From Escherichia coli (GTDB lineage: Bacteria > Pseudomonadota > Gammaproteobacteria > Enterobacterales > Enterobacteriaceae): DNA of 64,000 bases. The position numbers and the translations under genes are program-made. Below the pieces are notes generated by a model. It was not told the origin of the DNA. It saw nothing but the letters and a program-made list of their open reading frames with translations, and made no database searches. Shown here one piece after another: positions 17,001-32,710 of the stretch (position 1 is its first letter; every line of letters starts with the position of its first letter). The DNA lies in NCBI RefSeq assembly GCF_003790525.1, contig NZ_CP033635.1; one strand, given 5' to 3'.

Positions 17001-18932
17001 AGTAAATCGCTTTCCGGAAAAGGTTCAGTGGGCATACTGAACACCACTGATCTGACACTTTCCGGAGATAACCGTAATTTCAGCGGTGAATTCCGTGTGC
17101 AGAAAGATGCTGCTCTGCGGGCTTCAGATGAAAAACACCTGGGCACCGGGCTGATTGACAGTGATGGTGTCACCTGGCTTACCGCCAGTGGAAACTGGTT
17201 ACTGAAGAATGATATTACTGGCTCCGGCGCTCTGGTGAAACAGGGGGCGGGTAATCTGATCATTAATCATGAGCTGACTTATACCGGTGATACCACGGTT
17301 GAGAATGGCGTTCTGATTGTCGGTGATGATTCAGTCACCCGTGCCGCTGGCGCGACGTTGTCAGGATCCAAAAACATTCATGTTCTTAATGGCGGCACAC
17401 TGAGTGGGCTGGGGACCGTTTCGGGTCAGGTTAATAACCAGGGAACACTGGCATCACTGAATGCTCTCTCAGGTTATGAAACGGCAGAGGCGGGCAATTT
17501 TACCGTTGGCTCACTGACCAATACCGGCGTCATTCGTCTGGCCGGTGGTAAGACAGGAAATACCCTGACCGTAAATGGCGATTACACTGGTGGCGGTACG
17601 TTAATTATCAATACCGTGCTGGGGGATGATACTTCTGCCACTGACAAACTGATTGTCACGGGTAACACCTCCGGTGATACCGGCGTGGTGGTGAATAATG
17701 TCCGGGGCCAGGGGGCTCAGACCGCTGACGGCATTGAGATTGTGCATGTCGGTGGGCAGTCTGACGGTAACTTCAGACTGCAGAACCGTGCGGTGGCAGG
17801 GGCATGGGAATATTTCCTGCATAAAGGTAATGCGGGTGGTACTGACGGTAACTGGTATCTGCGTTCTGAATTGCCGCCAGAACCACAACCGCAGCCGCAG
17901 CCACAACCGCAGCCACAGCCACACCCCACGCCGGATAAACCTGTACAGAAGGTCTATCGTCCGGAAGCGGGCTCTTATATTGCGAACATAGCGGCAGCCA
18001 ACACGCTGTTCAACATCAGAATGCACGATCGTGAGGGGGAAACTTACTATACCGATGTGTTTACTGGTGAGAAGAAAGCAACAAGTATGTGGATGCGTCA
18101 TATCGGCGGTCATAATCGCTGGAAGGACAGCAGTTCACAGCTGAATACGCAAAGTAACCGTTATGTTGTGCAACTGGGTGGCAGCATTGCGCAATGGACT
18201 GACGGTCAGGACCGTCTGCAACTGGGGATTATGGCCGGTTATGGAAATGAGAAGAGTTCCACGACATCCTCGCTTTCGGGATATAAATCTAAAGGTGCGA
18301 TCAATGGATACAGCACCGGTTTATACGGAACGTGGCAGCAGAATGACGGTAATGACAACGGGGCTTATGTCGATACCTGGATCCAGTACGGATGGTTTAA
18401 TAATACCGTTAATGGTGAAAAACTGGCTGCGGAGTCCTGGAAATCCCGTGGATTTACCGGTTCAGTGGAAGCGGGTTATACCTTTAAAGCCGGCGAATTT
18501 ACCGGTAGCCAGGGTAGTCACTATGACTGGTATATTCAGCCGCAGTCCCAGATCACGTGGATGAATGTAAGAGCCAGTGAGCATACGGAGAAGAATGGCA
18601 CGAAAGTTCAGCTCAGCGGAGACGGTAATATCCAGAGTCGTCTGGGCGTCAGAACTTACCTGAAAGGTAAGAGTGCGTCTGATGATAATAAGGCGCATCA
18701 GTTCGAGCCATTTGTGGAAGTTAACTGGATCCATAATACACGGAGCTGGGGTGTCAAAATGGATAATACGGCACTCAGTCAGGACGGAGCTACAAATATT
18801 GCTGAAGTCAAAACGGGTGTTCAGGGTAAATTGTCAGATAACCTGAATGTCTGGGGCAATGTTGGTGTTCAGGCTGGCGATAAAGGGTACAGTGATGCCC
18901 AGGCAATGCTGGGTATTAAATATATATTCTAA
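11019..18932 (+). CDS. upaE: giant AIDA-I-type (type Va) autotransporter adhesin
   Basis: The 2637-aa ORF starts with an ESPR-type extended signal peptide (MNKIYKVIWNHTTQKWDVVSELT). A long Gly/Asn/Thr-rich beta-helical passenger follows, then a PQ linker and a C-terminal beta-barrel ending in KYIF. The symbol follows the ipuR-linked locus of CFT073. Confidence 0.85.
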   Translation: MNKIYKVIWNHTTQKWDVVSELTSCRKKCKSTRLGIALSAMVLGGAIAINCNNAMADVILSPDWRPGTNNSGVGAATVSGKTEYITGPNVVQSGGSGLIWMTVEQAILNGYTTGDNLSGLIYVNTGEKTKTITVKDEVTGAYQTLQVFDTDSFSQRDAGTGGNETIPGFSGTADFFNATRFVTANNGGTAILDVGSPAIGNFFKNTQLAVADGEGSSVVWNSVNDFYFQPGATMQGGGVTQKIIDSMKYAGTITDWAGKVHHINSLDDLKQYNQYLIKSLEDKTLSYKQYDAEFNKALIVTKHNYNVDMTAGGRIDSTPYKENVGLLAVLHATNNARAILGKTGKLTGVLPAYGNGGGIVATNGGTGVNEGVIDAIGTEMIAYQDSTIVNDGTLFVWDNNDKYALQAEGMVAGSNGSSAINNGVINIRPFKNAFAPEGINTAIVVSNGGMATNKGTINITADASTNDNNGKTRGVNVGAGGSFINSAFGSINVGIAEDKTATHSAVGSVAIEVQNGANKVVNEGTIFLGRGAQGNYGILAKDAGSVDVVNKGTITIDGYDSDAPALNVGMLANNSSGMKNSGIINVNGLNSTGLQVINAGQLNSDGTINVGGEGISSGFRNYGAWVEGARSNVNVSGKINLSGTGAVGVFAKDGGSLTLSGNGAVLFGSSDQIGFYVYGKDSAIHNTGSGVMDVSTENSTLFRIASGATFQGTADASSALTASGKNSYALIATGKSDGGVASTVTSGGMTINLTGEGATATLIEGGAQGTIESNAIINMDNASAIAGIADGNGYDISGKLINPKDKTTLLTAGAQLSSTQDKVTGYIARNGATLNNTGNIIFTGKNTVGVRVEEGAVGTNSGNITVQDGGVGLIANATQDVTTINNSGNLVLKGGDNANRTTGIKASGTTTTVNMTAGTISLQGQGAIGVEASNKGTVNLDGSAVPNFASDGSGITDQIAFRIIGDGATIKTNIAPGTLLDASGERSVLFRIEDGAKQAGSLLMKTSGTGSRGIWATGKGSNVLADAGSDFQILGAQAQGLYVTGGATATLKQGASVNLVGDGAVVAEVDGNEYALDGSITQTNTGSVITNEADISSPLNNAKGFITRNQGLLINSGNIDFTTGTDNIGVWVDNGRFENTGSRIAVNGVALFVEGEHAQITSTGGDIVAVDGEAAIKLGAGASLNLAGSGLGTIEGQKNAHGILLDTGAVGLVIDGAKINVNAAGAVGHGIENRAEIEGIQLTNTTEINVADGIGVRTSASLAKTNSGTINVDGSGIALAFQKADGSETDNNLDMSDSGGLVINLKGTGGTGIFANTKDGAVVKSGASVNVTQADGGSALVVNNAASEVVQSGNLISASLSHAVVDASKAQSFTNKGQIKAASATGTAMAFDDAVNTTVLNDSGAEIQGVVALNGGDNTFTNKGSITGTVSAKEGNNTFLFDDGSILTGEVAAGNGNNNVTLNGKAHVDKVTAGTGKNTFTIKGEGATWNLLDGGQGDSDSLIFDNAIHTLDSAVKLRNFEHVGLKNSSLVTLKEALVLTDGGTGPGSVDIESGSELAIIPAVAGNFTFDPLLTGKGTLSARLDADTSAFEFSHNVGDQFAGTLKLGTSSFALEGLNTSGLTHAMLMSETGNITTVGSGVQQIGGLGFNGGTLIFGSVMPGDTIASNSIETSAAGTLDIRGKGTIQVTMPDEVINDIPAVDTRKNLLEQDDAQTLVTLVNAAGTVTGTGGQLQLVDENGQAISHSQTFDVTQGGEVVAQGNYDYKLLGSSDGVKGDGLYIGYGLKSLDLQGTGDKALVLTPRANAQGLQTDLGAQLTGAGDLAIEAAGQVVTLSNGGNNYTGDTLVRSGTLQMANDNVLGATGSLNVASNAVFRTDGYSQTVGALQTETGAHIQLDSGSVLTVSGTQRQPGDDNGGIIENNVLTGDGTLAVTGSNLTVHGTNIGFTGNVSLTRGSLVEMNGAQGLGSQGSISFESLNDRLAIDIADGSGVSSNLSKSLSGKGSVGILNTTDLTLSGDNRNFSGEFRVQKDAALRASDEKHLGTGLIDSDGVTWLTASGNWLLKNDITGSGALVKQGAGNLIINHELTYTGDTTVENGVLIVGDDSVTRAAGATLSGSKNIHVLNGGTLSGLGTVSGQVNNQGTLASLNALSGYETAEAGNFTVGSLTNTGVIRLAGGKTGNTLTVNGDYTGGGTLIINTVLGDDTSATDKLIVTGNTSGDTGVVVNNVRGQGAQTADGIEIVHVGGQSDGNFRLQNRAVAGAWEYFLHKGNAGGTDGNWYLRSELPPEPQPQPQPQPQPQPHPTPDKPVQKVYRPEAGSYIANIAAANTLFNIRMHDREGETYYTDVFTGEKKATSMWMRHIGGHNRWKDSSSQLNTQSNRYVVQLGGSIAQWTDGQDRLQLGIMAGYGNEKSSTTSSLSGYKSKGAINGYSTGLYGTWQQNDGNDNGAYVDTWIQYGWFNNTVNGEKLAAESWKSRGFTGSVEAGYTFKAGEFTGSQGSHYDWYIQPQSQITWMNVRASEHTEKNGTKVQLSGDGNIQSRLGVRTYLKGKSASDDNKAHQFEPFVEVNWIHNTRSWGVKMDNTALSQDGATNIAEVKTGVQGKLSDNLNVWGNVGVQAGDKGYSDAQAMLGIKYIF
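17874..17933 (+). repeat. CCNCAR dinucleotide-codon repeat encoding the (PQ)n linker PPEPQPQPQPQPQPQPHPTP
   Basis: The repeat ccacaaccgcagccgcagccacaaccgcagccacagcc is read directly. It lies between passenger and barrel, as in AIDA-like autotransporters. Confidence 0.9.
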
Positions 18933-18979: not shown

Positions 18980-19510
18980 ATGAGTTCTGTAATGAAATTT
19001 TCTGTTGTTAATGCAGTAGTGCTGCTGTTGCTGATTGTACTTACTGGTGTTTTTTATATGAAAAAGTCAAAAGAAATTGCAGTTGTTAATATCGATGCTA
19101 TTTATAATCAGTCTGCCGCCGGAGACATGGCCAGAAAACATCTGAATGAGGTTAAGAGTATTCTTGAAAAAGGATATGAGGATGCGCAAAAAGTATTCGC
19201 AGATAACGCGAATAAAGAGGCGCTGCTTCTTGATGCCAGACAAAAACTGGAACGACAATATGTTATTGAGGAAAATAGCGCAAAAATGGTGTTATCCCGT
19301 GCGATAGATAATGCTATAGGCACATGGAGAAAAGACAATCCTAAAAATATTGCCGTATTGTCTTCAGGTGTTGTGCTTGCGCATAACGAGTCAGCTGATA
19401 TCACCAAAGAAGTCATGACTCTGGTTGAAAAAGAAAATCTGGTTTTTAATAAATTACCCAAAGTGGAAGTGCACAATAAGAATGAAGAGAAACCAGAACA
19501 AAGTAAGTAA
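18980..19510 (+). CDS. Skp/OmpH-like periplasmic chaperone paralog
   Basis: The 176-aa ORF has an N-terminal hydrophobic segment, then IAVVNIDAIYNQS followed by a long charged helical region. This is the OmpH-family pattern. The start could be 18992. Confidence 0.6.
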   Translation: MSSVMKFSVVNAVVLLLLIVLTGVFYMKKSKEIAVVNIDAIYNQSAAGDMARKHLNEVKSILEKGYEDAQKVFADNANKEALLLDARQKLERQYVIEENSAKMVLSRAIDNAIGTWRKDNPKNIAVLSSGVVLAHNESADITKEVMTLVEKENLVFNKLPKVEVHNKNEEKPEQSK

Positions 19511-19947: not shown

Positions 19948-19966
19948 TGGTGTCCCTGCAGAAATC
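19948..19966. repeat. distal att repeat (degenerate copy of the argW 3' end)
   Basis: tggtgtccc-tgcagaaatc here compares with tggtgtcccctgcaggaatc at 32636-32655. The difference is one 1-nt deletion and one mismatch. Confidence 0.7.
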
Positions 19967-20115
19967 ATCTTAATTATTATTATGTTGATTTATATGTAGT
20001 TTATTTTTGATTTTTTGTTTTTGTACCCGTTTTGTGCCCGTTTTATTCGATTCCCAATTTAAACTTCGATTCTAGAAAGGTGAGTAGGGGAGGTTATCAT
20101 TTCATGTATCATTAT

Positions 20116-20159
20116 TGTAGACACAGAATAATTACTCGCCTATCCTCACTGTAGACACA
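20116..20159. promoter_or_regulatory. direct repeats TGTAGACACA(G/C)AATA x2 upstream of the toxin-antitoxin operon (candidate operator)
   Basis: tgtagacaca occurs at 20116-20125 and 20150-20159, 25-70 nt upstream of the mazE-like start. Confidence 0.45.
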
Positions 20160-20183
20160 CAATAGATACAGGAGTTAACCCAC

Positions 20184-20432
20184 ATGCGCACACAGGTTGT
20201 ATTGCAAAAATGGGGTAATAGCATTGCCCTTCGACTAACGGGAAACCTTAAAACCGTTCCGGGGTTTTCAGTGGGTGATATCGTCAACGTTGAAATTAGT
20301 GAAAAGGGGCTTTTTGTAGAAAAGCCTGCACGCCGTCGCCTGAGTGAAGCCGAATTACTCGCCGGGATAACGCCAGTTACAGCGCACGCGGACGAAATTG
20401 CCACCCCATTCAATGAGGAGGTTGATTACTGA
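20184..20432 (+). CDS. MazE/ChpS-like antitoxin (AbrB/SpoVT fold)
   Basis: The 82-aa ORF contains the motif LQKWGNSIALRL, characteristic of MazE-type antitoxins. It has an acidic C-terminus and a TGATG overlap with the toxin gene. Confidence 0.8.
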   Translation: MRTQVVLQKWGNSIALRLTGNLKTVPGFSVGDIVNVEISEKGLFVEKPARRRLSEAELLAGITPVTAHADEIATPFNEEVDY

Positions 20433-20776
20433 TGTTTGTACCTAAGCGTGGTGATATTTGCTGGCTGGATTTTGAGCCGCAGAAAGGAAAAGAGAGCGGA
20501 AAGTATCGCCCGGCACTCATACTATCCCATGAGCAATATAACCGACTCACCGGGCTTGTCATATGCTGCCCCATAAGTACGAGCATACGAAATGCTCCCA
20601 CAGAAGTTCCGGTAACAAATCTGGACGCCCCCAGCGTGGTAGCAACCACACTCATTCAAACCCTTGACTGGCGTCAGCGGAAAGCGCGCTTAATCACAGA
20701 GGCAGAAGATGGGGTATTTAATGATGTGCTTGAAAGAGTCATTACCCTGATTGGTGGAGAGCATCTGCTTAAGTAA
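20432..20776 (+). CDS. MazF/PemK-family endoribonuclease toxin
   Basis: The 114-aa ORF contains PKRGDICWLDFEPQKGKESGKYRPALILS and VICCPISTS, the MazF/ChpBK pattern. Confidence 0.8.
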   Translation: MFVPKRGDICWLDFEPQKGKESGKYRPALILSHEQYNRLTGLVICCPISTSIRNAPTEVPVTNLDAPSVVATTLIQTLDWRQRKARLITEAEDGVFNDVLERVITLIGGEHLLK

Positions 20777-20779
20777 AAG

Positions 20780-20797
20780 GAGGGCTGAGAAGCCCTC
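20780..20797. terminator. hairpin between the convergent mazF-like and capsid-like genes
   Basis: The hairpin gagggct-gaga-agccctc lies 4 nt after the mazF-like stop. Confidence 0.45.
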
Positions 20798-20819
20798 AAC
20801 GTTACCAGAAATTTCCTTG

Positions 20820-22091
20820 CTATTCTTTCCAGTCAATCCCATCCAGTAAGCACCCTGCCTCATATTGCCCAACAACCCAGTCAAGATTGCAGGACTCATA
20901 GAAAGCGAGGCGATTATACTGTGGCTCGTTTTTTACCAGACCACGAACGGAGCCGCGTTGCCAGTACAGGCACAGATTGGCAAGAGGTGTGATCAGCACA
21001 GCATTGTCCGGGAAAAATGGAACGGTCACAGCCGGAAGATTCCCCAGCACGGGCTTTTTAATGATTTCCTCGTTAAGCAAAATTTCCTGATTCATCTGCG
21101 ATGGATCAAGACGGTTTATCAAAGGCCATTGTTTACGGACCAGAGTATTGTGACTGCATACGGCCACAATGCCTTCCTGCCACTGTTCATCAATCATGGA
21201 TTGCCAGGCATCCAGAACAAGTGCATCTATTGTATGGTGTGTACCGCGTGTATTGCTTGTCGGCGATGAAACAGAAAGACCGCTGATAACCCTTCCCGCT
21301 GCTTCGTTTCGAAACTTCTGCAACCATCCGACGCCGCAATCGTCACGGCCCGGATATGTTTCAGGATCAGATTGATCGGCATAGTGTGTGCCGTTAAAAC
21401 CAATCTGAATTAAATCCAGCCATTTCCGGCGTTCAAAAGCGGCACGGGCGCTTCCTTCAAGACCATTTGCGGACGCGTGAGCATCGACATTGTCGTAGCT
21501 CAACGCAAAATCAAAATTAACCTGCTCGCAGCGGTAGCCTCTTGAAACCAGTGAATGCGCCTGTAGTGGCGAACGGCGCTCGTGAGGTGGCGATGTACGT
21601 GCCAACGGCCGGGAAGCGTCTACCAGCACAACCTGACCTGATATATCCGTAACAGGCACGGGGGTTATTTCAGCAAGGAAATTTGCCTGCCATCCACTGG
21701 CAAGCGTTGCACTCTGGCGGGGAACGGGTTCAACTTCTGACGAATAGCGCGCAGTATCACCGGAAAAGTGCAAATCCTTCGGATGCTTTCCGGTTATCGA
21801 CTCGATAGCGCAATTGAAAACCATCTGAGACTGTTGATTTCGTTGTGATACAACATAATCAGCAGTGCAATTATAACACTCAATGCCGTCGTTATTACCC
21901 CCACCGCTTGCAGTATGCAGGGTGTGAAGCTCAAGCTCACGCTCCAGTTTTTGATATTCATTGTCCAGCGCGCGACGCGTCTCATCGCTTATGCTTGCTG
22001 TGTTTGCTTTCAGGCGATTCCGGGACATTAACTCCCTGAGTCGGCTCACTATATCAGCGCCGTGCAAATGTGAAATATTCAGACCGCCCAT
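20820..22091 (-). CDS. P2 GpN-family major capsid protein homolog with a ~95-aa N-terminal extension (possible fused scaffold domain)
   Basis: The protein is collinear with recalled P2 GpN. CEQVNFDF aligns with CDQINFDF, GWLQKFRNEA with GWLQKYRNEA, GNLPAVTVPFFPDNAVLITPLANL with GNLPAVRVPYFPADAMLITKLENL, and YESCNLDWVVGQYEAGCL with YESMNIDYVVEDYAAGCL. The start was chosen at the TAATG overlap with the upstream gene (MGGLNISH) rather than the ORF-track start at 22232. Confidence 0.8.
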   Translation of the reverse strand: MGGLNISHLHGADIVSRLRELMSRNRLKANTASISDETRRALDNEYQKLERELELHTLHTASGGGNNDGIECYNCTADYVVSQRNQQSQMVFNCAIESITGKHPKDLHFSGDTARYSSEVEPVPRQSATLASGWQANFLAEITPVPVTDISGQVVLVDASRPLARTSPPHERRSPLQAHSLVSRGYRCEQVNFDFALSYDNVDAHASANGLEGSARAAFERRKWLDLIQIGFNGTHYADQSDPETYPGRDDCGVGWLQKFRNEAAGRVISGLSVSSPTSNTRGTHHTIDALVLDAWQSMIDEQWQEGIVAVCSHNTLVRKQWPLINRLDPSQMNQEILLNEEIIKKPVLGNLPAVTVPFFPDNAVLITPLANLCLYWQRGSVRGLVKNEPQYNRLAFYESCNLDWVVGQYEAGCLLDGIDWKE

Positions 22092-22801
22092 TACTGCCAC
22101 CCCCGGCAGAGTTCTCTGCCCTCCGCAAGGTCGCGCATTTTTTCTGGATTCTGTCGCGCCGCGCTCCATTGTACAGGTGAAGGGGCGTTCCTGATTGCGT
22201 GGCTTACCGAATCCGGCAGTTTCTCCGGGCAATAACGAAGCGGATTGGAGGCATCGCTCTCAATATCGTTAATCCGGCCGCGAATCAGCCCGACACTTTC
22301 AACAATATCTGCCATTTTCAGTGTTTCACATATTTTCTTTTCTGCGTTATACAGCGGCTGGCCAAGCAGCTCACATAAACCACGAATCAATAGCAGAGCA
22401 GGGGTCAGCTCGTTAATCAGTCCGGGAAGTGCTTTTGCAAATATCTCTGCCCGCAACTTATTATCAATGCTTTGGTAAGCACAGCCAGCCTCTGCCGCGT
22501 TATAACGACACTCCAGTAACCTGATGCGCGCCTCATCATGCAATACCCGCAGACGCTCAAGATTTTCTCGCGCCACACCCGCCTGAATGCATAATTTTGC
22601 GGAGGCTTCCGTTTTTGCGCCCAGCGCAGACAGGATTGAGTTCTGCCAGTCACGTTCGAGAGACTCCAGCTCCCCTTTCGTCTGTTCGATAGTCGCTTCC
22701 AGATTGGTGATTAATGATTCCTGTTCGCTGAGTTTTGCCATGGCCGTATCAAACTGTGCTTTACATGCCTGATGCCTGGCGCTTGCCTGAGTTATATCCA
22801 T
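22091..22801 (-). CDS. coiled-coil protein, possibly Sid/Psu-like capsid size-determination or decoration factor
   Basis: The 236-aa ORF is predicted helical, with a heptad-rich N-terminus (AKLSEQESLITNLEATIEQTKGELESLERDW). Its size and position (after Ogr/Delta, before the capsid gene) resemble the P4 sid/psu module. An AGGAG RBS is present. Homology is not verified. Confidence 0.45.
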   Translation of the reverse strand: MDITQASARHQACKAQFDTAMAKLSEQESLITNLEATIEQTKGELESLERDWQNSILSALGAKTEASAKLCIQAGVARENLERLRVLHDEARIRLLECRYNAAEAGCAYQSIDNKLRAEIFAKALPGLINELTPALLLIRGLCELLGQPLYNAEKKICETLKMADIVESVGLIRGRINDIESDASNPLRYCPEKLPDSVSHAIRNAPSPVQWSAARQNPEKMRDLAEGRELCRGWQ

Positions 22802-22879
22802 TGTTTGCTCCTGTAATACATTTTTTACTTACGCCCATTTTTTCCATATTGCGTAATACATTCCAGCCGATTTTGTTCT

Positions 22880-22910
22880 CGTAATACGCTCACAATACTG
22901 TTGTATTACG
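22880..22910. promoter_or_regulatory. inverted repeat CGTAATAC-N15-GTATTACG in the divergent promoter region (candidate operator)
   Basis: The repeat is read directly. It lies between the divergent 236-aa gene and the RHH gene. The same 8-mer recurs 8 times between 22813 and 23889. Confidence 0.5.
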
Positions 22911-22965
22911 CTTTCTTATATCGCGGGTGTTAAATCCCGGTATAAGCAATCAGGGAGGCAACACG

Positions 22966-23199
22966 ATGAAAAAACAAAAGAAAATGCGATACGTATTACG
23001 CTGTATTCGTATCCCGCACGAAATCGACCATAAAATAAATCAGATATGTAAGGACAGAGAGATGAACTACTCCCAGTGCGTCAGAATGTTTATCTGTCAG
23101 GGAATTAAGGCCGGGGAAACGCAGGAAGAAGACCGCAACGGGCGCAATGTAGCGGGAGATGTGTGGGCCTGGGCAAATGACCAGAACTACACGACGTAA
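22966..23199 (+). CDS. small ribbon-helix-helix-like DNA-binding protein (hypothetical)
   Basis: The 77-aa ORF starts at the internal ATG preceded by a GGGAGG RBS. The pattern YVLRCIRIPHEIDHKINQICKDREMNYSQCVRMFICQGI fits a strand-helix-helix fold. The assignment is tentative. Confidence 0.45.
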   Translation: MKKQKKMRYVLRCIRIPHEIDHKINQICKDREMNYSQCVRMFICQGIKAGETQEEDRNGRNVAGDVWAWANDQNYTT

Positions 23200-23249
23200 T
23201 ACAGAAATAACGTAGCCGGTTACACTCGCTGGCTGCGTTATACAAATCA

Positions 23250-23432
23250 CTATGAAGTTTTCAACTTCCTGCGCTTAGTGATGCGTACAAACGACTCAAG
23301 CGTACAAAAACAAGCCCCACACTCAATATTACTGCACTGGTAATACGTTTTGTAGATGTTTTGTTCGTGCTCTTCCAACGAACGACTACGGGTTCGGGCT
23401 GAAGCGCCACAGGCCGGGCAAGGGAAAGACAT
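23250..23432 (-). CDS. Ogr/Delta-family zinc-finger late-gene transcriptional activator
   Basis: The 60-aa ORF has CPACG...CSNIECGACF, four Cys with the Ogr/Delta spacing. A GAGGAG RBS is present. Confidence 0.8.
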   Translation of the reverse strand: MSFPCPACGASARTRSRSLEEHEQNIYKTYYQCSNIECGACFCTLESFVRITKRRKLKTS

Positions 23433-23793
23433 ATCACGCTCCTCTTACTGGTGTGAAATTTGACCTATTATATCTCCTGCCGCCCCCTCTGGCTGTATCA
23501 AATAAACCCGCAGCAGTCGCCGCGTATTACGGACGGACGCACCGTTCCCATGCTCACTCGTCACATTCCCCGTATCAGTTCTCTCTTACCGTAAGAACGG
23601 CTCTGGCTGGCGATAAAACTAACCCGGTCGGGCATTCCCGCAGTCTTTAGAGAAAATGTAATTTACCCCCTGAAACGTGGGCTGTTCCCCCGTCACCTGC
23701 GCGCGAAAAACTCACCGTTTTTTGTGCACGCACGAAATCGCCCTCCGGGTGCGCCAGTACTGGGCCGGATGGGCAAAAAGTTACTCTAAAAAA

Positions 23794-23820
23794 TTGTGCA
23801 AATTTGTGCACTTTTGTGCA
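23794..23820. repeat. three helically phased direct repeats of TTGTGCA (exact 10-bp period)
   Basis: ttgtgca occurs at 23794, 23804 and 23814 in non-coding DNA between the iteron field and ogr. Confidence 0.85.
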
Positions 23821-24046
23821 GATGAACAATAGCGTGAAAAAGAGTGCTTTTGAGAGATTTTTTATGGCAACTGCGCCGCGTGTATTACGTTTTTTACCAT
23901 CCCCGCCGCGCATGTACATACTTCATTTTTCTGCCAGACAACAGGGCAACTCCCCGTGACTGACAGCCCCAAAAAATCAATGATTGATGTTGCATTTTTG
24001 TTAAAGGTTAGACCAGTTGTTTTAGGGCTCTGCCTCATAATCCGGT

Positions 24047-24360
24047 GGGGGGTGCGCAAAGCGGTTACAACGGTTACAACACTCAAAAACACCACTTAAC
24101 AGCATGATTTTAATGGATATTGTTTGTAACCGCTTTGCGGTTACACTGCGGTTACAACGGTTACAGGTTTCAAAAAGCACTTTATTATCAATCAATTAAA
24201 AACTTAACCTGTAACCGCCTGTAACCTAACAAAACGGTTACATGTAACCGCGTTGTAACCGCTTTTATAACTCATCGGACCAGTTATAATATATTGATAT
24301 ATAATACAAAAATAAGTAATTTTAAATTTGTAACCGTTGTAACCGCTTTGCGCACCCCCC
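24047..24360. repeat. iteron field (candidate replication origin): 13 copies of GGTTACA/TGTAACC enclosed by 33-bp perfect inverted repeats, with an AT-rich tract
   Basis: The left arm ggggggtgcgcaaagcggttacaacggttacaa (24047-24079) is the exact reverse complement of 24328-24360. The heptamer occurs in both orientations throughout. The AT-rich stretch lies at about 24280-24327. Confidence 0.7.
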
Positions 24361-24611
24361 CCCAAACTTTAGCGCGACCCTTTAAAATGTTAATTAAACT
24401 CACTTACTCTGTATCTCTCTCGTTAACTCTCTGTTATTGAAATGTATCTCTCCACTGTTTCACTCTTTCTGATAATCAGGGGAAGCAAAAAATTGATGGC
24501 GGCACTACTGCAATATGGCCACCATTGCATTGCTGTTACCGTTGGTTCTGGCCAACAAAAAAGGTCAGCGGGAAACTGACCTCTTTTGCTGTGAATGCGG
24601 CGTTCTGCGGG

Positions 24612-25616
24612 TTACTCTGCTGGCTCTTTTTCTTCGGTGATCACTATGTTGGCTACCGGGTTAAATCTCATGGCATCTGCCAGATAATCCGGTGCAAAAT
24701 GTGCGTATGCCATAGTCTGCTGAATTGTCGCATGCCCAAGGATTTTTTGTAGCGCAAGAATGTTGCCACCGTTCATCACAAAGTGACTGGCGAATGTATG
24801 CCGCAATACATGCGCAGCCTGCCCCCTCGGTAAATCGGGTTTTATTTTTTTTAATGCCCGGCAAAACTCTCTGTACTTCACATCAAACAGTCGCCCGGTT
24901 TCTTTTGTTTTTACGGCATCGCATATTTCCTGCGACACAGGCACCGTTCTTTTTCTACCGTTTTTGGTTTCCAGAAACGTTATTCTGTTATGAACTATTT
25001 GCTCTCCATGCAATCTGCTGGCCTCACTCCAGCGGGCTCCGGTACAAAGACACAAGAGCGCAACCCTTCGTTGATCTCCATTCAGCCCGTCAAGCAACAA
25101 TGTGACCTCGTTTTTTGATAAAAAGGCCATTTCCCGCTGCTTTACATAAAGAACAGGAATACCACGAACCGGATGCTCTGCATCCCACAAACCGATCTTT
25201 TTCAGGGCTGTAAACATCCCCGATAATCTGTTCATGTATCTGTTTGCTGAGGACGGCTTTAATCCTTCCGCAATTTTCTGCGATCGCCATGCAATGATTT
25301 TTAATTTGTTGAGTTCTGCCGCAAACATGTCAGCTCCAAGCTCATTAATAATTTTGCCAAGTTGCTGTTTATCCGTGTTTGCCTTTCGCCTGTGCTGACC
25401 GTGATAGACCCACCACAATTCCAGTAAATCGCTAAGCGTTCTCCGGTCGCGATAGCCCTGTATAAACTCGCGCTTTTCGGCGTTCGCTATGATGTACCGT
25501 TCAGTTGCTGTAGCTATCGATTTTTTGTCAAATATTCTTCTGATGCGCTTCCCTTTACGTCCGCATGGCCTGATATCGAGCAGCCACCGCCCATCATGCA
25601 TCTTTCTGATCGGCAT
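24612..25616 (-). CDS. P2-type tyrosine integrase (second recombinase of the island)
   Basis: Residues MPIRKMHDGRWLLDIRPCGRKGKRIRRIFDKKSIA ... LCLCTGARWSEASRL ... HVLRHTFASHF ... LGHATIQQTMAYAHFAP are collinear with recalled P2 Int. The ATG lies 2 nt after the primase stop, with a GGAGGGGAG RBS inside the primase 3' end. Confidence 0.85.
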   Translation of the reverse strand: MPIRKMHDGRWLLDIRPCGRKGKRIRRIFDKKSIATATERYIIANAEKREFIQGYRDRRTLSDLLELWWVYHGQHRRKANTDKQQLGKIINELGADMFAAELNKLKIIAWRSQKIAEGLKPSSANRYMNRLSGMFTALKKIGLWDAEHPVRGIPVLYVKQREMAFLSKNEVTLLLDGLNGDQRRVALLCLCTGARWSEASRLHGEQIVHNRITFLETKNGRKRTVPVSQEICDAVKTKETGRLFDVKYREFCRALKKIKPDLPRGQAAHVLRHTFASHFVMNGGNILALQKILGHATIQQTMAYAHFAPDYLADAMRFNPVANIVITEEKEPAE

Positions 25617-25618
25617 GT

Positions 25619-28288
25619 TTAACTCCCCTCCTTGTAACTGAATATCCGGCATTTCAGTACTTCCGGCTCTCTGGCCTCGGCGACCCCTCTTCCGGCGTTT
25701 GCCTGTCTGGAGACCTCACTACGAATGGTTTTGCGGCCTGTCAAAGGTCGGGAACGTCCGGCTGCGAGCAACTCAATCATTTCGCGGTCAGTTCGGATCT
25801 CCACGCGGTGAATAGCGGCAGCCTGTGCCAGTTGCGGAATACTGATAGCAATCCCCTCGCGGCATCCCTTGCCGTAGTGGTTTACACCGTATTTTGTTAT
25901 GCCGTCCAGATAGTCGAACGCCTCCCAGAACGCTATTACTTCCGGCAAGTCATCCGTTACCGCTTTAACTTGTTCCGCTGCCATTCGTTCCAGTTCCTGG
26001 CATGTGGCATTAAGCCATTCATCCGGGATATCAATAACGCATTTCAGCGCCCTGACCAGCGCAATAAGTTGCGCGTGATTTTTGGCAATACGGGGATGGA
26101 GAATATTTTCGCAACCGCAAAGGCGGGTCGTTTCAGGCTCTGAGAGCGCCAGAAACATTTCCATAATTGCCCGTTCACGGCTGACTGCCCGATGAATAAA
26201 CCCTGACACCTTCTCAACGGGGTAGAGTTCCAGTCGTCTCGCCGCCAGCCGGGTATCAGACGAGTGGCGCTTTTTATCGGTATATATGCGAATCAGTCGC
26301 TCAATAATTGCAAGTGAGGCGTTTACCCTGGCATTCTGTGCAATCACGATAGCGCCCTTAAAATCCGGGTCATAGGTGTTGTTATTGTTGGTCTTAACGC
26401 CACGAACGCCGATACCGCCGCCGTTATAGAGGCTTTTCAGGTTATCGAAGTCAAACGCACCTCTTTTTTGCGCATTGCCTCCCCTGTCTGCTTCAATCAG
26501 AACAACAGGTAATCCGGCGACCTGTCCAAAGGTGCGCTTCCAGCCCGCCTCTGATCCTTTGGTTGGATCAACGCCTTCATAGTTGTCACGACCGCACAAC
26601 CGCCAGCAAAAATCAATCAATGTTGATTTACCCGTTCCGGGCTCCCCGGTGACTTCAAGGAAGGGGAAGGATTCTTCTTTATCCCGGATTTGTTCGCTGA
26701 ACAGGGAGCCCAACCAGAAAGCCAGGGTAATAATTCCTTTTTCACCAAAAGCCAGCCAGAGATCTTCCACCCAGGACTCTGTAAACTCATCCGGTTTTTT
26801 GTAGTTAATCTGTAATGTGGGTTTTTCGCTTAATGGTTTTGCGTTTATGCCATCAATTTCAAAATAATCTTCGTCATTGATTTCATAAGTTTTTCCCTTG
26901 TAAACAGCAATATCATTAAACAGCCATGCCCCAATCGCCTTGTTGTATCCGATAAAATCCTGACCAATAACCTCTTTTATTGCGGGAAGGTCATTTTTTA
27001 TTAATGCGTCAAGGTGCGCAGTTGTTCCGGTATAAATGCCGCCTTTTGCCACATGCAACAGGCGTTTTTTAAATTCAGATGCGGATGTCAATTGTCCTGA
27101 TGTAAAGGTGTTTTTCACCGTAGCACCATCCGGGAACGTAACACGGAAGTAATACCATGCTTCATCCGTGTCATTATTTCTAATGTAATAAAGCGGCGCT
27201 GGGTTACAGTTTGCGATTTCTTTTACTGCGCCAGATTCCTTAAGTGCAATTTTGCGCGCTTCATCCTCATCAACACTTCTCTCATTCTTGGCACGCTCTA
27301 CAGCTTTCATATAGCGCTCAATGTCCAGTTTGAACCAGAAAACACGGTTATCAAAAGTAAAATGAAATTCCTTCCGCTCACGAAAGGAAAATATTATTAG
27401 CGCCTTATCTCTCGGAGATTTCGCCAGCAATAAATCACCGTAATGACGGTATCTTTTCACATCATGGCCACGCAGCTTTCCGGCGATGTGTAAATCATTC
27501 CAGTCGCGTTTATTGTTGTTTTTACCTGGCAACGCCGCTGCCGTTCTCCAGCCGTCTTCGGCGCTGCGTTCTGCATGTTTTTTCGCGTAACGCTCACCCG
27601 CACGCCCGTTATCCAGCGCCCACACAATAACCGGACGGGGATTATCCCCGCACAGCTTCGCCAGCTCTTCCAGCGCCTTATCAGGGTAGTTCACGGCAGA
27701 CATGACAGAAACGGCCGCAATGCCATTCTGGTTAAGGCTGATGGCATCAAAGATGCCCTCACAAATCCAGATTTCTTTGGCCTTGCTTAAATCTGCTCCC
27801 GGATAAGCCCACCACAACCCCTTGTAGCTGCCGGAAAAATTCGCCTTGCGCGCGAAGCGTCCCGGTCGGTCTATGATGCGCTCCCACCACACGCCGTCAG
27901 CCAGCGTAAAACGCACAGTAGCGGCCTGTTCGCCGTTTTCCTTGTCCTGGTATCGCTCCTGAGTAAATGCGCCCTTCAGTGGCCCCACAGCAATATTGCG
28001 CGCCTCCTGAAGATAAGCTGCCACCGCTGCATATGGCTCGTCTTTCGTGCTGATATAACGATCTGACCATGATGAAAACACATCCGGGTAAAGTTCTTTG
28101 GTCAGCAGGTCTGTACCGCATTTATTTTCGCGCCCACAGTGTACGATGTACGGCCTTTCAAGGCTGGTAAACAACTCTTTCTTTCCACATTGCGGACAAA
28201 CACCATACCGGAGGTAGTTATTTTCTTCTTTGAAGTTGTAATCACGGATAAGACGGTTAATAATCTCTTTTCTGATGTCAGATTTCAT
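25619..28288 (-). CDS. P4 alpha-like primase-helicase (Zn finger, Toprim and SF3-type P-loop NTPase)
   Basis: The features are CPQCGKKELF...HCGRENKCG (zinc finger), WICEGIFDAISL (Toprim) and VTGEPGTGKST (Walker A). The start was chosen at MKSDIRKE (28288), which has a GGTGGAG RBS. Confidence 0.85.
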   Translation of the reverse strand: MKSDIRKEIINRLIRDYNFKEENNYLRYGVCPQCGKKELFTSLERPYIVHCGRENKCGTDLLTKELYPDVFSSWSDRYISTKDEPYAAVAAYLQEARNIAVGPLKGAFTQERYQDKENGEQAATVRFTLADGVWWERIIDRPGRFARKANFSGSYKGLWWAYPGADLSKAKEIWICEGIFDAISLNQNGIAAVSVMSAVNYPDKALEELAKLCGDNPRPVIVWALDNGRAGERYAKKHAERSAEDGWRTAAALPGKNNNKRDWNDLHIAGKLRGHDVKRYRHYGDLLLAKSPRDKALIIFSFRERKEFHFTFDNRVFWFKLDIERYMKAVERAKNERSVDEDEARKIALKESGAVKEIANCNPAPLYYIRNNDTDEAWYYFRVTFPDGATVKNTFTSGQLTSASEFKKRLLHVAKGGIYTGTTAHLDALIKNDLPAIKEVIGQDFIGYNKAIGAWLFNDIAVYKGKTYEINDEDYFEIDGINAKPLSEKPTLQINYKKPDEFTESWVEDLWLAFGEKGIITLAFWLGSLFSEQIRDKEESFPFLEVTGEPGTGKSTLIDFCWRLCGRDNYEGVDPTKGSEAGWKRTFGQVAGLPVVLIEADRGGNAQKRGAFDFDNLKSLYNGGGIGVRGVKTNNNNTYDPDFKGAIVIAQNARVNASLAIIERLIRIYTDKKRHSSDTRLAARRLELYPVEKVSGFIHRAVSRERAIMEMFLALSEPETTRLCGCENILHPRIAKNHAQLIALVRALKCVIDIPDEWLNATCQELERMAAEQVKAVTDDLPEVIAFWEAFDYLDGITKYGVNHYGKGCREGIAISIPQLAQAAAIHRVEIRTDREMIELLAAGRSRPLTGRKTIRSEVSRQANAGRGVAEAREPEVLKCRIFSYKEGS

Positions 28289-28336
28289 ATATAAAACTCC
28301 ACCCCACTGCACCTTTTGCCGTGGGGTTTTTATTAA

Positions 28337-28636
28337 TTACTCGTTACTTATTGCTTTGGCAATCCCGGCGGTTTCAGCACTATGCCATGAAAAAATTCCG
28401 CCAGAAGTATGCATTCCTGACTTAATCACTCGTAATTCCCGATAAAGAATGTTAGTTAATGATTCCATTTCATTAATTTGCACTGGCATTCTCTCACTGG
28501 TATTAATTTCACCTGTCAATGCTGAAATGAGCGCAATAACATTTATTACATCTTCAAGATTCTCAATGGAATCTTCCGTGAAAAAACCAGCGTATTCTTT
28601 TTTGTATATATTGCGGATATTCTGATTTTCAGACAT
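28337..28636 (-). CDS. hypothetical protein (satellite early operon)
   Basis: The 99-aa ORF has a GGGGAG RBS, is co-oriented with the operon, and was not recognised. Confidence 0.5.
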   Translation of the reverse strand: MSENQNIRNIYKKEYAGFFTEDSIENLEDVINVIALISALTGEINTSERMPVQINEMESLTNILYRELRVIKSGMHTSGGIFSWHSAETAGIAKAISNE

Positions 28637-28703
28637 AAAAACTCCCCGACCCGTTAAGATCGAAATATAAATTTAATTCAGTTATCAGTTGGTAATTCGG
28701 TAA

Positions 28704-28922
28704 TCAGTCGGAAAGCTGCGTCACCTTCAACGCTTTGAAATGTGTCATTCCCAGCTCTTCCAGCCCTTCGGCTGCGCGGCGTATGGCTTCGCCCGGTCCC
28801 GTTCCGTATACCGTTGCATGTGCATGTTTGGTTAACCCACGTTTATTAACGGCATAACCCAACACAAAGAAACGTTTTTCACCACTGCCATTATTTTTAC
28901 GGGATATTGAACGGCTTTTCAT
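28704..28922 (-). CDS. hypothetical protein (satellite early operon)
   Basis: The 72-aa ORF has an ATGA start/stop overlap with the upstream ORF. Confidence 0.5.
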   Translation of the reverse strand: MKSRSISRKNNGSGEKRFFVLGYAVNKRGLTKHAHATVYGTGPGEAIRRAAEGLEELGMTHFKALKVTQLSD

Positions 28923-29104
28923 TTCTTCACCCTTACCACTGATGCTGTGAGTTCTTCTGGCAATTGATATTTCGGCGCAATTTCTTCCGTATACCTGATA
29001 GCGTCCCTTGCCGCTTTTCCTTTTGATTTATATTTATATGTGGTGCGGTAGTTTTCTTCCTCTCCTGTTACCACATTACGCAATTTTATATGAATCTCGT
29101 ACAT
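28919..29104 (-). CDS. hypothetical protein (satellite early operon)
   Basis: The 61-aa ORF starts at MYEIHIKL. A GGAGGGG RBS is present, and the ATG lies 2 nt after the upstream stop. Confidence 0.5.
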   Translation of the reverse strand: MYEIHIKLRNVVTGEEENYRTTYKYKSKGKAARDAIRYTEEIAPKYQLPEELTASVVRVKK

Positions 29105-29106
29105 CG

Positions 29107-29289
29107 TTACCCCTCCATGATTTTTACTGCGCATTTGTGGGTTAATCGCCCCTGTTTGTCATTGCGGGAATATGCCATACGACAGGTATCACGCCATGCA
29201 TCGTCATAAGTCGGATATTCCCGGGAATGAATCATCTGGCGAACGTCGCCGTTCTGGTAGTTAATCAGGGTGATAAGGAGCTTAAACAT
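29107..29289 (-). CDS. hypothetical protein (satellite early operon)
   Basis: The 60-aa ORF starts at MFKLLITL. Its ATG overlaps the upstream stop (ATGTTTAA). The longer 145-aa ORF-track version was rejected. Confidence 0.45.
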   Translation of the reverse strand: MFKLLITLINYQNGDVRQMIHSREYPTYDDAWRDTCRMAYSRNDKQGRLTHKCAVKIMEG

Positions 29290-29809: not shown

Positions 29810-29815
29810 TTCTGC

Positions 29816-30067
29816 CTATTGTTTCTTATTGTTGATTTCAGGTGCACTAAATGCACATCCTTGACTGGTTGGCTCGCTGGCTTTAGCGAGCTTCTTTTTT
29901 GCTCTGCTGCCAATACCCGGCCTCCTTCCCTCACATGTAGTCATGTGCTCATTCCAGTCAGGTGGATAATGCTGTATTACCGGACATCCGGTTATGATGT
30001 TTAAAGCGTTTGTTTGTTTATGCCACGTGGAGAATATACCCCCACCGCCATTACTTGTATTTATCAT
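29816..30067 (-). CDS. hypothetical protein (first ORF after alpA)
   Basis: The 83-aa ORF ends 6 nt before the next start and was not recognised. Confidence 0.4.
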   Translation of the reverse strand: MINTSNGGGGIFSTWHKQTNALNIITGCPVIQHYPPDWNEHMTTCEGRRPGIGSRAKKKLAKASEPTSQGCAFSAPEINNKKQ

Positions 30068-30362
30068 AACAGTTCACCCAATTCGGTTAATGTAACCGGA
30101 ATAACTCAATTTCATACACTGTAAATAAATGCTGATTTTAAACTTAGCTCCTTGGAATATATTTCTTACGTGTGACGCACAGGTGAAAATATCCCTCTGA
30201 TAGTCCATTTTCTTTTATTTTGTCACATCTGTTTACTCCGGTTCCCTTAACAAGGGTAGAGCATCTTTTAAACCATGAATGCATCTTCGGTTAAGTGATG
30301 TTTCTTATTGTATGAAATATTTAGGCGCATATCGCGCCATGCTGACTATAAAATGAAAATAA

Positions 30363-30584
30363 TTAAGCCTGAAAACGTTGTTGTTTTCTTTCTTCTATCC
30401 AGTCGATAATTTCCTCTTCAACCCATGCAACCGCGCGAGGGCCTATTTTTATTGGTTTGGGGAATATATCAGATTTTATATCTTCGTAAATTCGAGCTCT
30501 TGATCTCCCTGTGATTTCAATGACTCTGGGGAGTCTTATTAATTTTTGAATCCGCCTTTCGCTGGTCTGTGAGTATGCTGACAT
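30363..30584 (-). CDS. alpA: AlpA/Vis-family phage transcriptional regulator or excisionase (MerR-like HTH)
   Basis: The 73-aa ORF contains LIRLPRVIEITGRSRARIYEDIKSDIFPKPIKIGPRAVAWVEEEIIDWI, the AlpA signature. Confidence 0.85.
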   Translation of the reverse strand: MSAYSQTSERRIQKLIRLPRVIEITGRSRARIYEDIKSDIFPKPIKIGPRAVAWVEEEIIDWIEERKQQRFQA

Positions 30585-31147: not shown

Positions 31148-31194
31148 TTGAGTTTAATTCAGCCGCTTGGGATAGTTTAGTTTGTTGAGTTGAT

Positions 31195-32457
31195 TCAGTC
31201 TGTTTCGTTAGTCCATTTAAAATCATAGGGGGAAATATATGCCGCCTTGCAGGTGTCGAGATAATCAGCCCACCATTGCAACATTCGGCGGCGTTCCTGC
31301 ATATGTTCAGCTCTGTGAACGTATGCAGCCCGGACACTGCCTCTTTCCCTGTGACTCATCTGAAGCTCAACGGCTTCTCTTGTCCACCTGCCTGACTCTG
31401 TCAGCGCCGAACAGGCCATGGTCCTGAATCCGTGACCACAAATATCTTTTTTTGTGTCGTATCCCATGTGGCGTAATGCCTTGTTAATGGTGTTTTCGCT
31501 CATTGGTTTTATCTGGTAATGGTCGCTGGGGAAAATAAACACTTCATCACCGGATATATTTCTTATATCGTCAAGAAGCTGCATGGCCTGAGTGGGTAAA
31601 GGGATGGCGTGAGGGGTTCCCATTTTCGTTCCACGATATGAATATTTTACGCCTTCTATTTTTTCGCGTTCTGCTGGTATTACCCACATTGATTTATCAA
31701 AGTCAATTTCATTCCAACGAGCAAAACGCAATTCACTTGAGCGAATAAAAATTAATAAATTTAATTTTAGTGCAAATTGCGTTAATAACCGTCCATTCAT
31801 CTTATGGTGGTAATCATTTATTTTGCCAAGTAATTCAGGTAATCGCTCAAGGGGAAGAGCGGGGCGATGTTTGGTTTTATTAGTTTCGATTGCACCGTTC
31901 AGTTCCTGCGCTGGATTGTATTTAATCATTCCATTCTGTACAGCGTAGCGCATAATGGCGTTCATTCGCTGCTTGTTACGTGATGCTGTCTCAAGCACTC
32001 CTTTGTCTTCCATTTTGCGTAAAGGAATCAGTAGATCCATGGTTGTGATCTCGTTAATTGGCCTTTTACCAAGAATGGGGAAGATGTGGTTTTCCAGGTC
32101 TTTTAAGACTTTTTGCGCGTGCAATTCGCTCCAGCCCTTTTTCCGGCTGTGCCATTCTCTGGCAACGTCTTCAAAAAGCACTATTTGAGGTTTTGGTGTG
32201 TGCAGTGGGTCAATGCCTTTAGCCAGGCTCGCCAGATATTCATCACGAGCGTTCCTTGCCTGTGCAAGTGTTACGGCAGGATAAATGCCTAAAGCTCGGG
32301 TCGTTTCTTTACCGTTGATAACCTTGCGAAAGCGCCAGTATTTTGAGCCGTTGGGGTGAACATAGAGATACAGGCCTTTCCCGTCACGAAGTTTTTTAAT
32401 TTTATTGTTGTCCTTATCTGGTTTGGCGTTACGTACAGCTATATCAGTCAGTTTCAT
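31195..32457 (-). CDS. P4-type (DUF4102 N-terminal arm-binding domain) tyrosine integrase
   Basis: The ORF has MKLTDIAVRNAKPDKD...GKGLYLYVHPNGSKYWRFR, and C-terminal HGFRTMA and Y in VRAAYVHRAEH. The start at 32457 has a GGAGGA RBS. The gene lies directly downstream of, and co-oriented with, tRNA-Arg. Confidence 0.9.
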   Translation of the reverse strand: MKLTDIAVRNAKPDKDNNKIKKLRDGKGLYLYVHPNGSKYWRFRKVINGKETTRALGIYPAVTLAQARNARDEYLASLAKGIDPLHTPKPQIVLFEDVAREWHSRKKGWSELHAQKVLKDLENHIFPILGKRPINEITTMDLLIPLRKMEDKGVLETASRNKQRMNAIMRYAVQNGMIKYNPAQELNGAIETNKTKHRPALPLERLPELLGKINDYHHKMNGRLLTQFALKLNLLIFIRSSELRFARWNEIDFDKSMWVIPAEREKIEGVKYSYRGTKMGTPHAIPLPTQAMQLLDDIRNISGDEVFIFPSDHYQIKPMSENTINKALRHMGYDTKKDICGHGFRTMACSALTESGRWTREAVELQMSHRERGSVRAAYVHRAEHMQERRRMLQWWADYLDTCKAAYISPYDFKWTNETD

Positions 32458-32635
32458 TATGTTGATCCTCCAGACGGGTACAAATAAAAATCGAACCAAG
32501 CATACCCGCTTTTATACCCATTTTAATATGGGCTTCAGGCAAATTTAACGAGAGAAAATGAGACAATGGGAGATGTTTAACTCATTGAAAGTAAATGGAT
32601 AATGGTTTTTTCTGAGAGGTTGCAAGAAGTTGCGA

Positions 32636-32710
32636 TGGTGTCCCCTGCAGGAATCGAACCTGCAATTAGCCCTTAGGAGGGGCTCGTTATATCCATTTAA
32701 CTAAGAGGAC
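32636..32710 (-). tRNA. argW: tRNA-Arg (anticodon CCU)
   Basis: The reverse complement reads GTCCTCTTAGTTAAATGGATATAACGAGCCCCTCCTAAGGGCTAATTGCAGGTTCGATTCCTGCAGGGGACACCA. It forms a cloverleaf with a CCT anticodon in CTCCTAAGG and an encoded CCA end. Confidence 0.93.

Follow-up and report, generated by a model that had tools for sequence, protein, structure and literature searches.

A Sid-like protein encoded next to a diverged P2-type capsid gene in a P4-related satellite island of Escherichia coli

The late cassette and its Sid-like protein

A 64,000-nucleotide stretch of the Escherichia coli chromosome (RefSeq assembly GCF_003790525.1, contig NZ_CP033635.1; hereafter the window) contains a group of four genes, here termed the late cassette, which is hosted by a 12.7-kb P4-related satellite island at tRNA-Arg. 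The cassette encodes an Ogr/Delta-type zinc finger protein, a small protein on the opposite strand, a 236-residue protein and a P2-family major capsid protein (Table 1). In a 96%-identical copy of the locus the RefSeq annotation of all four open reading frames (ORFs) is identical, and to date the cassette has been annotated as “hypothetical protein” only. The ATG of the 236-aa gene is preceded, 6 nt upstream, by AGGAG, and a ratio of non-synonymous to synonymous substitution rates (dN/dS) of 0.29 against the 96%-identical copy indicates that the gene is under selection. An initial annotation made from the sequence alone had described the product as helical and comparable to Sid, the external scaffold of satellite P4; both descriptions are borne out by the searches and the structure prediction given below.

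Searches with the single sequence against Pfam, the PDB and NCBIfam returned only coiled-coil noise (tropomyosin, diaphanous, AlgP and SMC), and the protein alone reached E values of 0.059 to phrog_6165, the PHROG containing P4 Sid, and of 1.5 to P4 Sid itself by BLASTP. A word-indexed protein search retrieved relatives of more than 88% identity only. Exhaustive HMMER searching of 1.8 billion cluster representatives gave 18 proteins, with a dozen full-length relatives of ~240 aa at 24–41% identity. The Sid PHROG was matched by 9 of 14 family members (best E 1.9e-6), and profile–profile comparison of the family with a 17-member Sid alignment (hhalign) yielded a probability of 84.8% (E 6.6e-6), the alignment being collinear and in register between columns 9–135 and 12–138. 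When four further members were added the probability was 82.7%, compared with 0.08% for a reversed-Sid control. A Sid hidden Markov model (HMM) run over every ORF of the 33 loci described below produced two matches, both to Sid-like genes of Klebsiella, at ~2e-6. A relationship to Psu of P4 and one to the P2 scaffold-slot protein gpO were tried and rejected (hhalign 0.3% and 0.17%, respectively). No unrelated family was matched in profile searches of Pfam, PHROG and NCBIfam, a tblastn search of 50,697 phage records gave no match at E ≤1, and the IMG/VR matches were near-identical satellite-sized contigs only. Judged by sequence, the window protein is a case of remote Sid homology and not of family membership by ordinary thresholds.

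AlphaFold2 run on the single sequence gave a predicted local distance difference test (pLDDT) score of 54, and this model was not used. With the family alignment the pLDDT rose to 92.6, and the predicted structure is all-helical, comprising helices 3–58, 65–146, 150–163 and 166–182 followed by short C-terminal helices. The first two, of 56 and 82 residues, form a hairpin stem. The published layout of Sid consists of a two-helix stem (residues 11–137), an α3/α4 region (139–189), a linker and a C-terminal capsid-binding helix, and the predicted model agrees with this fold, for which a stem of ~100 Å, the α3/α4 dimerisation region, the linker and the C-terminal helix served as the standard. In a Foldseek search of the PDB, the comparison that the initial annotation had suggested, the two best matches were Psu and Sid, between which the profile comparison favours Sid; the BFVD search returned generic coiled coils only. 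Conservation between the two families is highest in a motif at the tip of the hairpin (W52...G61 here, W59...G66/67 in Sid), and in P4 Sid the stem tip makes the threefold (trimer) contact of the dodecahedral cage that surrounds T=4 procapsids of gpN. The protein thus resembles P4 Sid (PDB 7JW1 chain E) in length (236 versus 244 aa), in its all-helical character and predicted topology and in the W...G(G) motif of the stem tip, whereas the identity is only ~14–18% and the C-terminal third has motifs of its own, namely a P-S pair that does not vary (in most cases PSPxQ) and LAEGxExC(R/K)G, which is largely conserved. Psu (PDB 3RX6) differs from it in having a shorter stem, and no sign of Rho binding was seen in the Sid-like protein. 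The 236-aa protein is very probably a remote homologue with the Sid/Psu fold, nearer to Sid.

The capsid gene, its partner and their control region

The stop codon of the Sid-like gene and the start codon of the capsid gene overlap by one base (TAATG), in keeping with the earlier suggestion that the former feeds into the latter, and one terminator-like hairpin follows the capsid gene. On this evidence the Sid-like gene is translationally coupled to a satellite-encoded, diverged capsid gene of P2 type. The capsid gene starts at the ATG at 22091; the 470-aa TTG ORF that a program-made list gives at this place is not the gene. Over residues 86–419 its product shares 34% identity with P2 gpN; in the comparison across lineages the satellite capsids are 36–45% identical to gpN and 34–60% identical to one another. 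Because it matches PF05125 while its score of 135 bits with the NCBIfam model TIGR01551 falls under the equivalog cutoff of 219.65, the protein is taken as a member of the gpN family and not as an equivalog of phage gpN. Its dN/dS of 0.06 against the 96%-identical copy points to strong purifying selection over the whole fold.

Two regions of the capsid protein depart from gpN. In gpN the sir loop (residues 183–224) is the contact site of the C-terminal helix of Sid; its equivalent in the satellite proteins is 3–9 residues shorter, is devoid of the acidic patch and has a largely conserved RV(I/V)SGLSVS motif of its own. Such a remodelled loop would fit a contact with the cage that is co-adapted yet different. 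In addition, the window protein has an N-terminal extension of ~85 aa (residues 1–85, 21836–22091). The extension is found in five of seven lineages, with lengths from 0 to 150 aa, and consists of two helices, the first of them amphipathic and conserved, and a linker of low complexity, which in the capsid of locus L012 (6716–8209) includes three tandem repeats of ~22 aa. A tblastn alignment ran in frame through the end of a gpO gene. The possibility that the extension is a fused C-terminal scaffold domain of gpO was examined and is not supported (BLAST E 0.4–2, no Pfam match, profile hhalign 0.07%).

The genomic context was inspected for eight divergent representatives of the Sid-like family, seven of which have enough flanking sequence, the contig of the remaining one being too short. 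The whole cassette (Ogr/Delta, opposite-strand small gene, Sid-like gene and Phage_cap_P2) is present in 5/7 (P0010, P0011, P0013, P0014 and P0021), and the gene order is kept among lineages at just 25–40% identity. In P0022 (locus L007) the Sid-like gene is followed by a 78-aa ORF and then by the capsid gene, with no Ogr gene in the available sequence; the same 78-aa ORF occurs in a further locus, L015, discussed below. Related satellites also encode a 101–112-aa homologue of the N-terminal ~100 residues of P2 gpP (L015, 6566–6904; L007, 249–554; 34–36% identity, E 1e-8 to 1e-10). This short protein, for which the window has no gene, might act in redirecting packaging.

With the capsid alignment as anchor, a species-wide scan retrieved 33 loci. 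A Sid-like gene lies directly upstream of the capsid gene in all nine satellite-type loci (E 1e-47 to 1e-98), none of which contains P2 Q, P, O, M or L. The 24 P2-type loci, which are non-enterobacterial, all have gpO in that slot and none has a Sid-like gene; Q, P, O, M and L are complete in 23 of them, the 24th being on a cut contig. The Sid-like gene therefore sits exactly in the P2 gpO slot upstream of gpN and travels with its own capsid gene. The nine loci belong to Escherichia, Klebsiella, Enterobacter, Izhakiella, Kluyvera, Erwinia and Apirhabdus, plus one metagenome-assembled genome (MAG). The latter (L026, QAKE01000006.1), a contig of 12.7 kb assigned to a “Bacillota bacterium” MAG, encodes proteins near-identical to their Kluyvera counterparts and is probably a contig of satellite size placed in the wrong bin. 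Over seven lineages, the identities between pairs of Sid-like proteins correlate with those between the corresponding capsid proteins (Spearman 0.75; the pairs are not independent), by which measure the two genes appear to have diverged together. Among 5,426 complete E. coli genomes the cassette was found in 56 (~1%) and is intact in 55 of these, and across genera of the Enterobacterales it is kept down to 25% identity. The initial annotation had named clear homology to an unrelated family, together with no co-occurrence with gpN-like genes, as what would speak against its proposal; what was found instead is a near-strict coupling and no match to any such family.

Regarding the upstream part of the cassette, the zinc finger protein announced by the initial annotation is confirmed by its profile match (Table 1) and by four cysteine ligands (C5, C8, C33 and C38, in a C-x2-C...C-x4-C arrangement). 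It has a single finger, as does P2 Ogr, and its identity to the first P4 Delta finger is 39%. The finger spacer measures 24 residues, compared with 22 in P2 Ogr. An ogr gene accompanies the Sid-like gene upstream in 8/8 complete satellite loci of the scan, and its product is presumed to be the activator of the late genes. The opposed 77-aa gene is likewise real: it begins at an ATG preceded by a ribosome-binding site (RBS) at 22966, as also read in the RefSeq copy, and not at the GTG at 22927 of the program-made list. In every lineage a homologue is found at this place and in this orientation, with a shared motif K-x-VLR-x-IRIPHE-x-D-x-I ... YS-x-C, and the family HMM matches on the opposite strand in eight of the nine scan loci (1e-17 to 1e-31), the ninth being cut by the contig end. 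A ribbon-helix-helix (RHH) fold is suggested for this protein by several weak but concordant matches (Arc-like PHROG 0.016, CopG-like 0.025, CopG_antitoxin 0.086, ORF56 0.007, RelB/DinJ 0.014, VapB 0.034 and MazE7 0.33) and a compatible sequence pattern of a basic N-terminus, a VLRxIRIP strand and two helices. It is a probable RHH DNA binder and a candidate regulator of the late promoter.

The region between the two divergent units contains the heptamer GTAATAC/GTATTAC at 22813, 22853, 22881 and 22903, and a fifth copy lies at 22993 inside the 77-aa gene; these are five occurrences within 22813–22999, against 20 in the 64-kb window (Poisson P ~1.5e-8). The heptamers precede the RBS of the Sid-like gene, recur at matching positions in related lineages and flank an imperfect dyad, TTGT-N15-ACAA, at 22873–22895 (−94 to −71 from the Sid-like ATG). 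As a criterion for Ogr/Delta targets, TGT-N12-ACA centred near −55 was used; P4 Psid has TGT-N12-ACA at −90, and the canonical form is found in 7 of 9 related loci and, counting 17 such loci, in nine, at −91 to −122. A consensus scan of the divergent region detected no sigma-70-like site. The simplest model is that of an Ogr-activated late promoter which would be gated by an RHH repressor. Four further heptamers occur around or upstream of ogr (23196, 23340, 23524 and 23882), so that 9 of the 20 copies in the window fall within 22.8–23.9 kb, and this clustering suggests that the same DNA-binding protein acts on ogr too.

The satellite island

Table 1. Features of the late cassette and of the island that hosts it (window coordinates)
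Feature	Position	Strand	Evidence and remarks
P2-family (gpN-like) major capsid protein, 423 aa	20820..22091	-	PF05125, E 2.2e-73, 247.7 bits (cutoff 27)
Sid-like protein, 236 aa	22091..22801	-	presumed external capsid scaffold
Divergent control region, 164 bp	22802..22965	.	heptamers and imperfect dyad
Conserved 77-aa protein	22966..23199	+	divergent from Sid-like/capsid operon
Ogr/Delta-type zinc finger, 60 aa	23250..23432	-	PF04606, E 2.3e-11, 43.9 bits (cutoff 26.3); phrog_603, 1.3e-10
Terminator-like hairpin	20780..20797	-	GAGGGCTTCTCAGCCCTC, then T-rich tail; closes Sid-like/capsid operon, just past convergent mazF
Probable left attachment (att) site	19948..19966	.	degenerate copy of tRNA-Arg 3' end, TGGTGTCCCTGCAGAAATC; matches TGGTGTCCCCTGCAGGAATC at 32636
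mazE/mazF-type toxin-antitoxin pair	20184..20776	+	RefSeq annotation of 96%-identical copy; cargo at island end
Iteron array	24062..24345	.	13 copies of CGGTTACA/TGTAACCG, both orientations
Second tyrosine integrase, P2/186-type	24612..25652	-	PF24624 and PF00589
Toprim primase/helicase (replication)	25619..28312	-	phrog_1139, E 2.4e-297
C4 antisense RNA	29507-29594	-	Rfam RF01695, 74.6 bits, E 2.3e-13; P1/P4-type RNA immunity
isrK / c4 target (c4-a1b1)	29620-29701 (whole element 29507-29714)	-	RF01394, 50.6 bits
AlpA/Vis-like excisionase-regulator	30363..30584	-	36% identity to P4 ORF88/Vis, E 1.8e-8
P4-type integrase	31195..32499	-	53% identity to P4 Int over 417 aa
tRNA-Arg (CCU)	32636..32710	-	ARAGORN and Rfam; integration target, right boundary of island

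The two att copies are 12,688 bp apart, the P4 genome being 11.6 kb. The island shares with P4 the integrase, Vis/AlpA, the Ogr/Delta finger and the C4-type RNA immunity, the C4 RNA and its isrK target adjoining an Icd-like ORF; otherwise it has little in common with P4. The similarity of its primase to P4 α is confined to the Walker motif, P4 Delta is matched only weakly by an island protein in tblastn searches, and psu, epsilon and canonical sid were not found in the island by the same method. Of the seven-component P4-like core used by SatelliteFinder (int, psu, delta, sid, alpA and epsilon, as well as alpha), the island does not have the full set, and from its gene content it is best called a P4-related, phage-inducible chromosomal island (PICI)-like satellite. 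Homologues of P2 Q, P, O, M and L were not found anywhere in the window, the capsid gene being the lone P2 head gene.

The island holds two tyrosine integrases, the start of the P2/186-type gene overlapping the stop of the primase gene; this second integrase is 39% identical to that of a 186-like prophage directly adjoining a related satellite in locus L006. The iteron array, probably the replication origin of the island, lies within a non-coding gap of ~1.2 kb and is bracketed by the inverted repeat GCGCAAAGCGGTTAC (24050–24360). The same iterons (12 copies) are confined to related loci with the same primase type (L001 and L012). Several small ORFs are also found on the minus strand of the island. 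The mazEF pair is convergent with the capsid gene, and the site is regarded as a cargo hotspot since other lineages have RelB/ParE, HicAB or Gp49/HTH in that position. Outside the left boundary there are a 2,637-aa autotransporter adhesin-like ORF (11019–18932, +) and a 176-aa ORF (18980–19510).

Possible assembly of a small shell

We give an even chance to a model in which the island, upon activation by a helper, produces both a capsid protein of its own and the matching external cage, so that a small shell results. An active P2-like helper would lead to the switching on of the activator-dependent promoter in the divergent control region, either by the island Ogr-type activator or by the helper Ogr, and the divergent 77-aa RHH-like protein would also gate this promoter through the GTAATAC heptamers flanking the activator dyad. 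The operon would then yield the capsid protein and the Sid-like cage, which would bridge hexamers and trimerise through its long stem as Sid does, restricting the shell to a small (T=4-like) size suited to the ~12.7-kb island, while portal, maturation protease, terminase, head completion and tail would be provided by the helper. With a matched pair of capsid and cage, size redirection would be independent of the sequence of the helper gpN; we propose that it would in this way be immune to sir-type escape mutations, and predict that the redirection by the island is insensitive to such mutations in the helper. More tentatively, and at somewhat less than even probability, a satellite lineage of the Enterobacterales would build its shell from its own gpN-type protein and its own Sid-type cage, a P2-like helper contributing only portal, protease, terminase and tail, and may keep the ancestral context of the Sid/Psu fold, in which Sid would have begun by scaffolding a capsid protein whose gene had been captured. 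The initial annotation had suggested a self-contained module for size determination, which holds for the shell plus the cage and fails for the rest, portal, protease, terminase and tail genes being absent from the island.

Several observations weigh against the assembly of such a shell. The profile–profile probability for Sid is moderate, below 95%, and the sequence match to Sid is limited to the stem, the C-terminal capsid-binding part not being alignable. Given the shortened sir-loop equivalent without the P2 acidic patch, a Sid-type contact is not to be assumed. The capsid extension of ~85 aa is unexplained, and the island encodes no protease to remove it. A cos site of P2, P4 or 186 type was not found in the island (19948–32654) by 19-mer searches with ≤5 mismatches or by short-word blastn, and the spacing of the window dyad is N15 instead of the canonical N12. 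In the sister lineage L015 (8001–9510), the same satellite backbone, the Sid-like gene, the 78-aa ORF (which in L007 lies between the Sid-like and capsid genes) and Ogr are all present but the capsid gene is not; the Sid-like protein is thus presumably able to act on the capsid of a helper, and an island capsid may be dispensable. Finally, scaffold function and small-capsid assembly are what we infer from the sequence.

Other roles for the two proteins have to be considered. The satellite capsid protein might co-assemble with the helper gpN, or nucleate it, and be the size determinant itself, as proposed for Ccm of SaPIbov5, the Sid-like protein serving as a later, Psu-like decoration or stabiliser; size-redirecting capsid homologues have satellite precedents in Ccm and the capsid-like protein of PmCI172, and the island, lacking portal and protease, must interact with helper head proteins anyway. 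This mixed shell is rather unlikely, as the profiles point to Sid and not to Psu, the stem is of Sid length and not the shorter one of Psu, and both the 34–45% identity to gpN and the remodelled sir loop argue against easy co-assembly. An internal scaffold in place of gpO would account for the occupation of the gpO slot in all satellite loci and for the translational coupling to the capsid gene, and scaffolding proteins are generally all-helical; with no similarity to gpO in the profile comparison, and with an external scaffold, Sid, as the best match both in sequence and in structure, we consider that role unlikely. Slightly less probable still is that the capsid homologue and the Sid-like protein mainly poison or misdirect helper assembly and thereby protect the host population, no vehicle being built. 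Helper yield is strongly suppressed when P4 or Ccm redirects capsid size, toxin-antitoxin cargo adjoins the cassette in every lineage and a cos site was not found. Against this reading stand the strong purifying selection on the whole capsid fold and, both in agreement with a transferable element, the P4-like size of the island and its complete backbone for replication, excision and immunity; interference does not preclude transfer.

That the 236-aa protein mainly suppresses termination for late-gene expression, as a Rho antagonist, is suggested by the fold it has in common with Psu, a Rho inhibitor. The absent profile similarity to Psu, the Sid-like stem length and the near-strict genetic coupling to a capsid gene make it very improbable. 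The presence of a single P2 head gene might also indicate the remnant of a decayed P2-like prophage head with no present function. The conservation data effectively refute this reading: the cassette is intact in all but one of the complete E. coli genomes that carry it and persists across Enterobacterales genera, the dN/dS values are 0.06–0.29, and the satellite backbone around it is intact.

In its arrangement, the cassette was initially likened to a rearranged P4 sid-delta-psu operon. A Sid-like and an Ogr/Delta gene are indeed present, but it is not simply such an operon, because there is no psu; in contrast to P4, the Ogr/Delta gene is a separate upstream gene and the opposite-strand gene intervenes between it and the Sid-like gene. 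Like Sid, the Sid-like protein is the product of a satellite gene that neighbours an Ogr/Delta-type activator gene and has a dyad upstream at about −90; unlike Sid, it has no psu partner and is paired with a satellite capsid gene instead of acting on the helper gpN alone. The cassette also resembles the start of the P2 PO operon, with an activator-type promoter, a helical protein in the scaffold slot, a capsid gene of the gpN family and a divergent unit, although the unrelated Sid-like protein replaces gpO, there are no protease and no M, L, P or Q, and the divergent unit is the small RHH-like gene where P2 has terminase and portal genes.

Among other satellites, SaPIbov5 (Ccm) and PmCI172 likewise encode a diverged homologue of the helper capsid protein, linked to small-capsid formation, but lack an external scaffold of the Sid type, with Phi12-type cos phages and a Mu-like phage, respectively, as their helpers. 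Capsid-forming PICIs (cfPICIs) also have a capsid protein of their own, within a full module for head formation and packaging (capsid, portal, protease, connectors, TerS and sometimes TerL), whereas the island has capsid and cage genes only. TcaP of the PICI-like elements (PLE) of Vibrio cholerae is a satellite-encoded external scaffold giving small capsids, and works on the coat protein of the helper ICP1. Since a cage plus an own capsid stands between the reshaping of helper capsids (P4, SaPI1 and PLE) and the possession of a whole head module (cfPICI), it can be placed as an intermediate in the evolution of capsid piracy. Sid and Psu have been described as without analogue in phages, with no known occurrence of their fold beyond P4 elements (Kizziah et al. 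2020; Moura de Sousa and Rocha 2021). Full-text searches, whose coverage is incomplete so that an earlier description is possible, found no published description of a Sid homologue paired with a satellite gpN.

The family extends the Sid/Psu fold to a second, deeply diverged satellite lineage and thereby provides an outgroup for the origin of Sid and Psu. If the ancestral context is indeed the one kept here, L015 and P4 would represent later losses of the capsid gene and retargeting to the helper gpN. If this lineage builds its shell from its own capsid protein and cage, the pair would be the first cognate capsid and external scaffold known in a satellite, and such a two-gene minimal system would make it possible to study the setting of the triangulation number by an external cage. 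The pairing, present beyond E. coli in several other genera, suggests a parasite that assembles a small shell for itself and does not merely reshape that of its helper.

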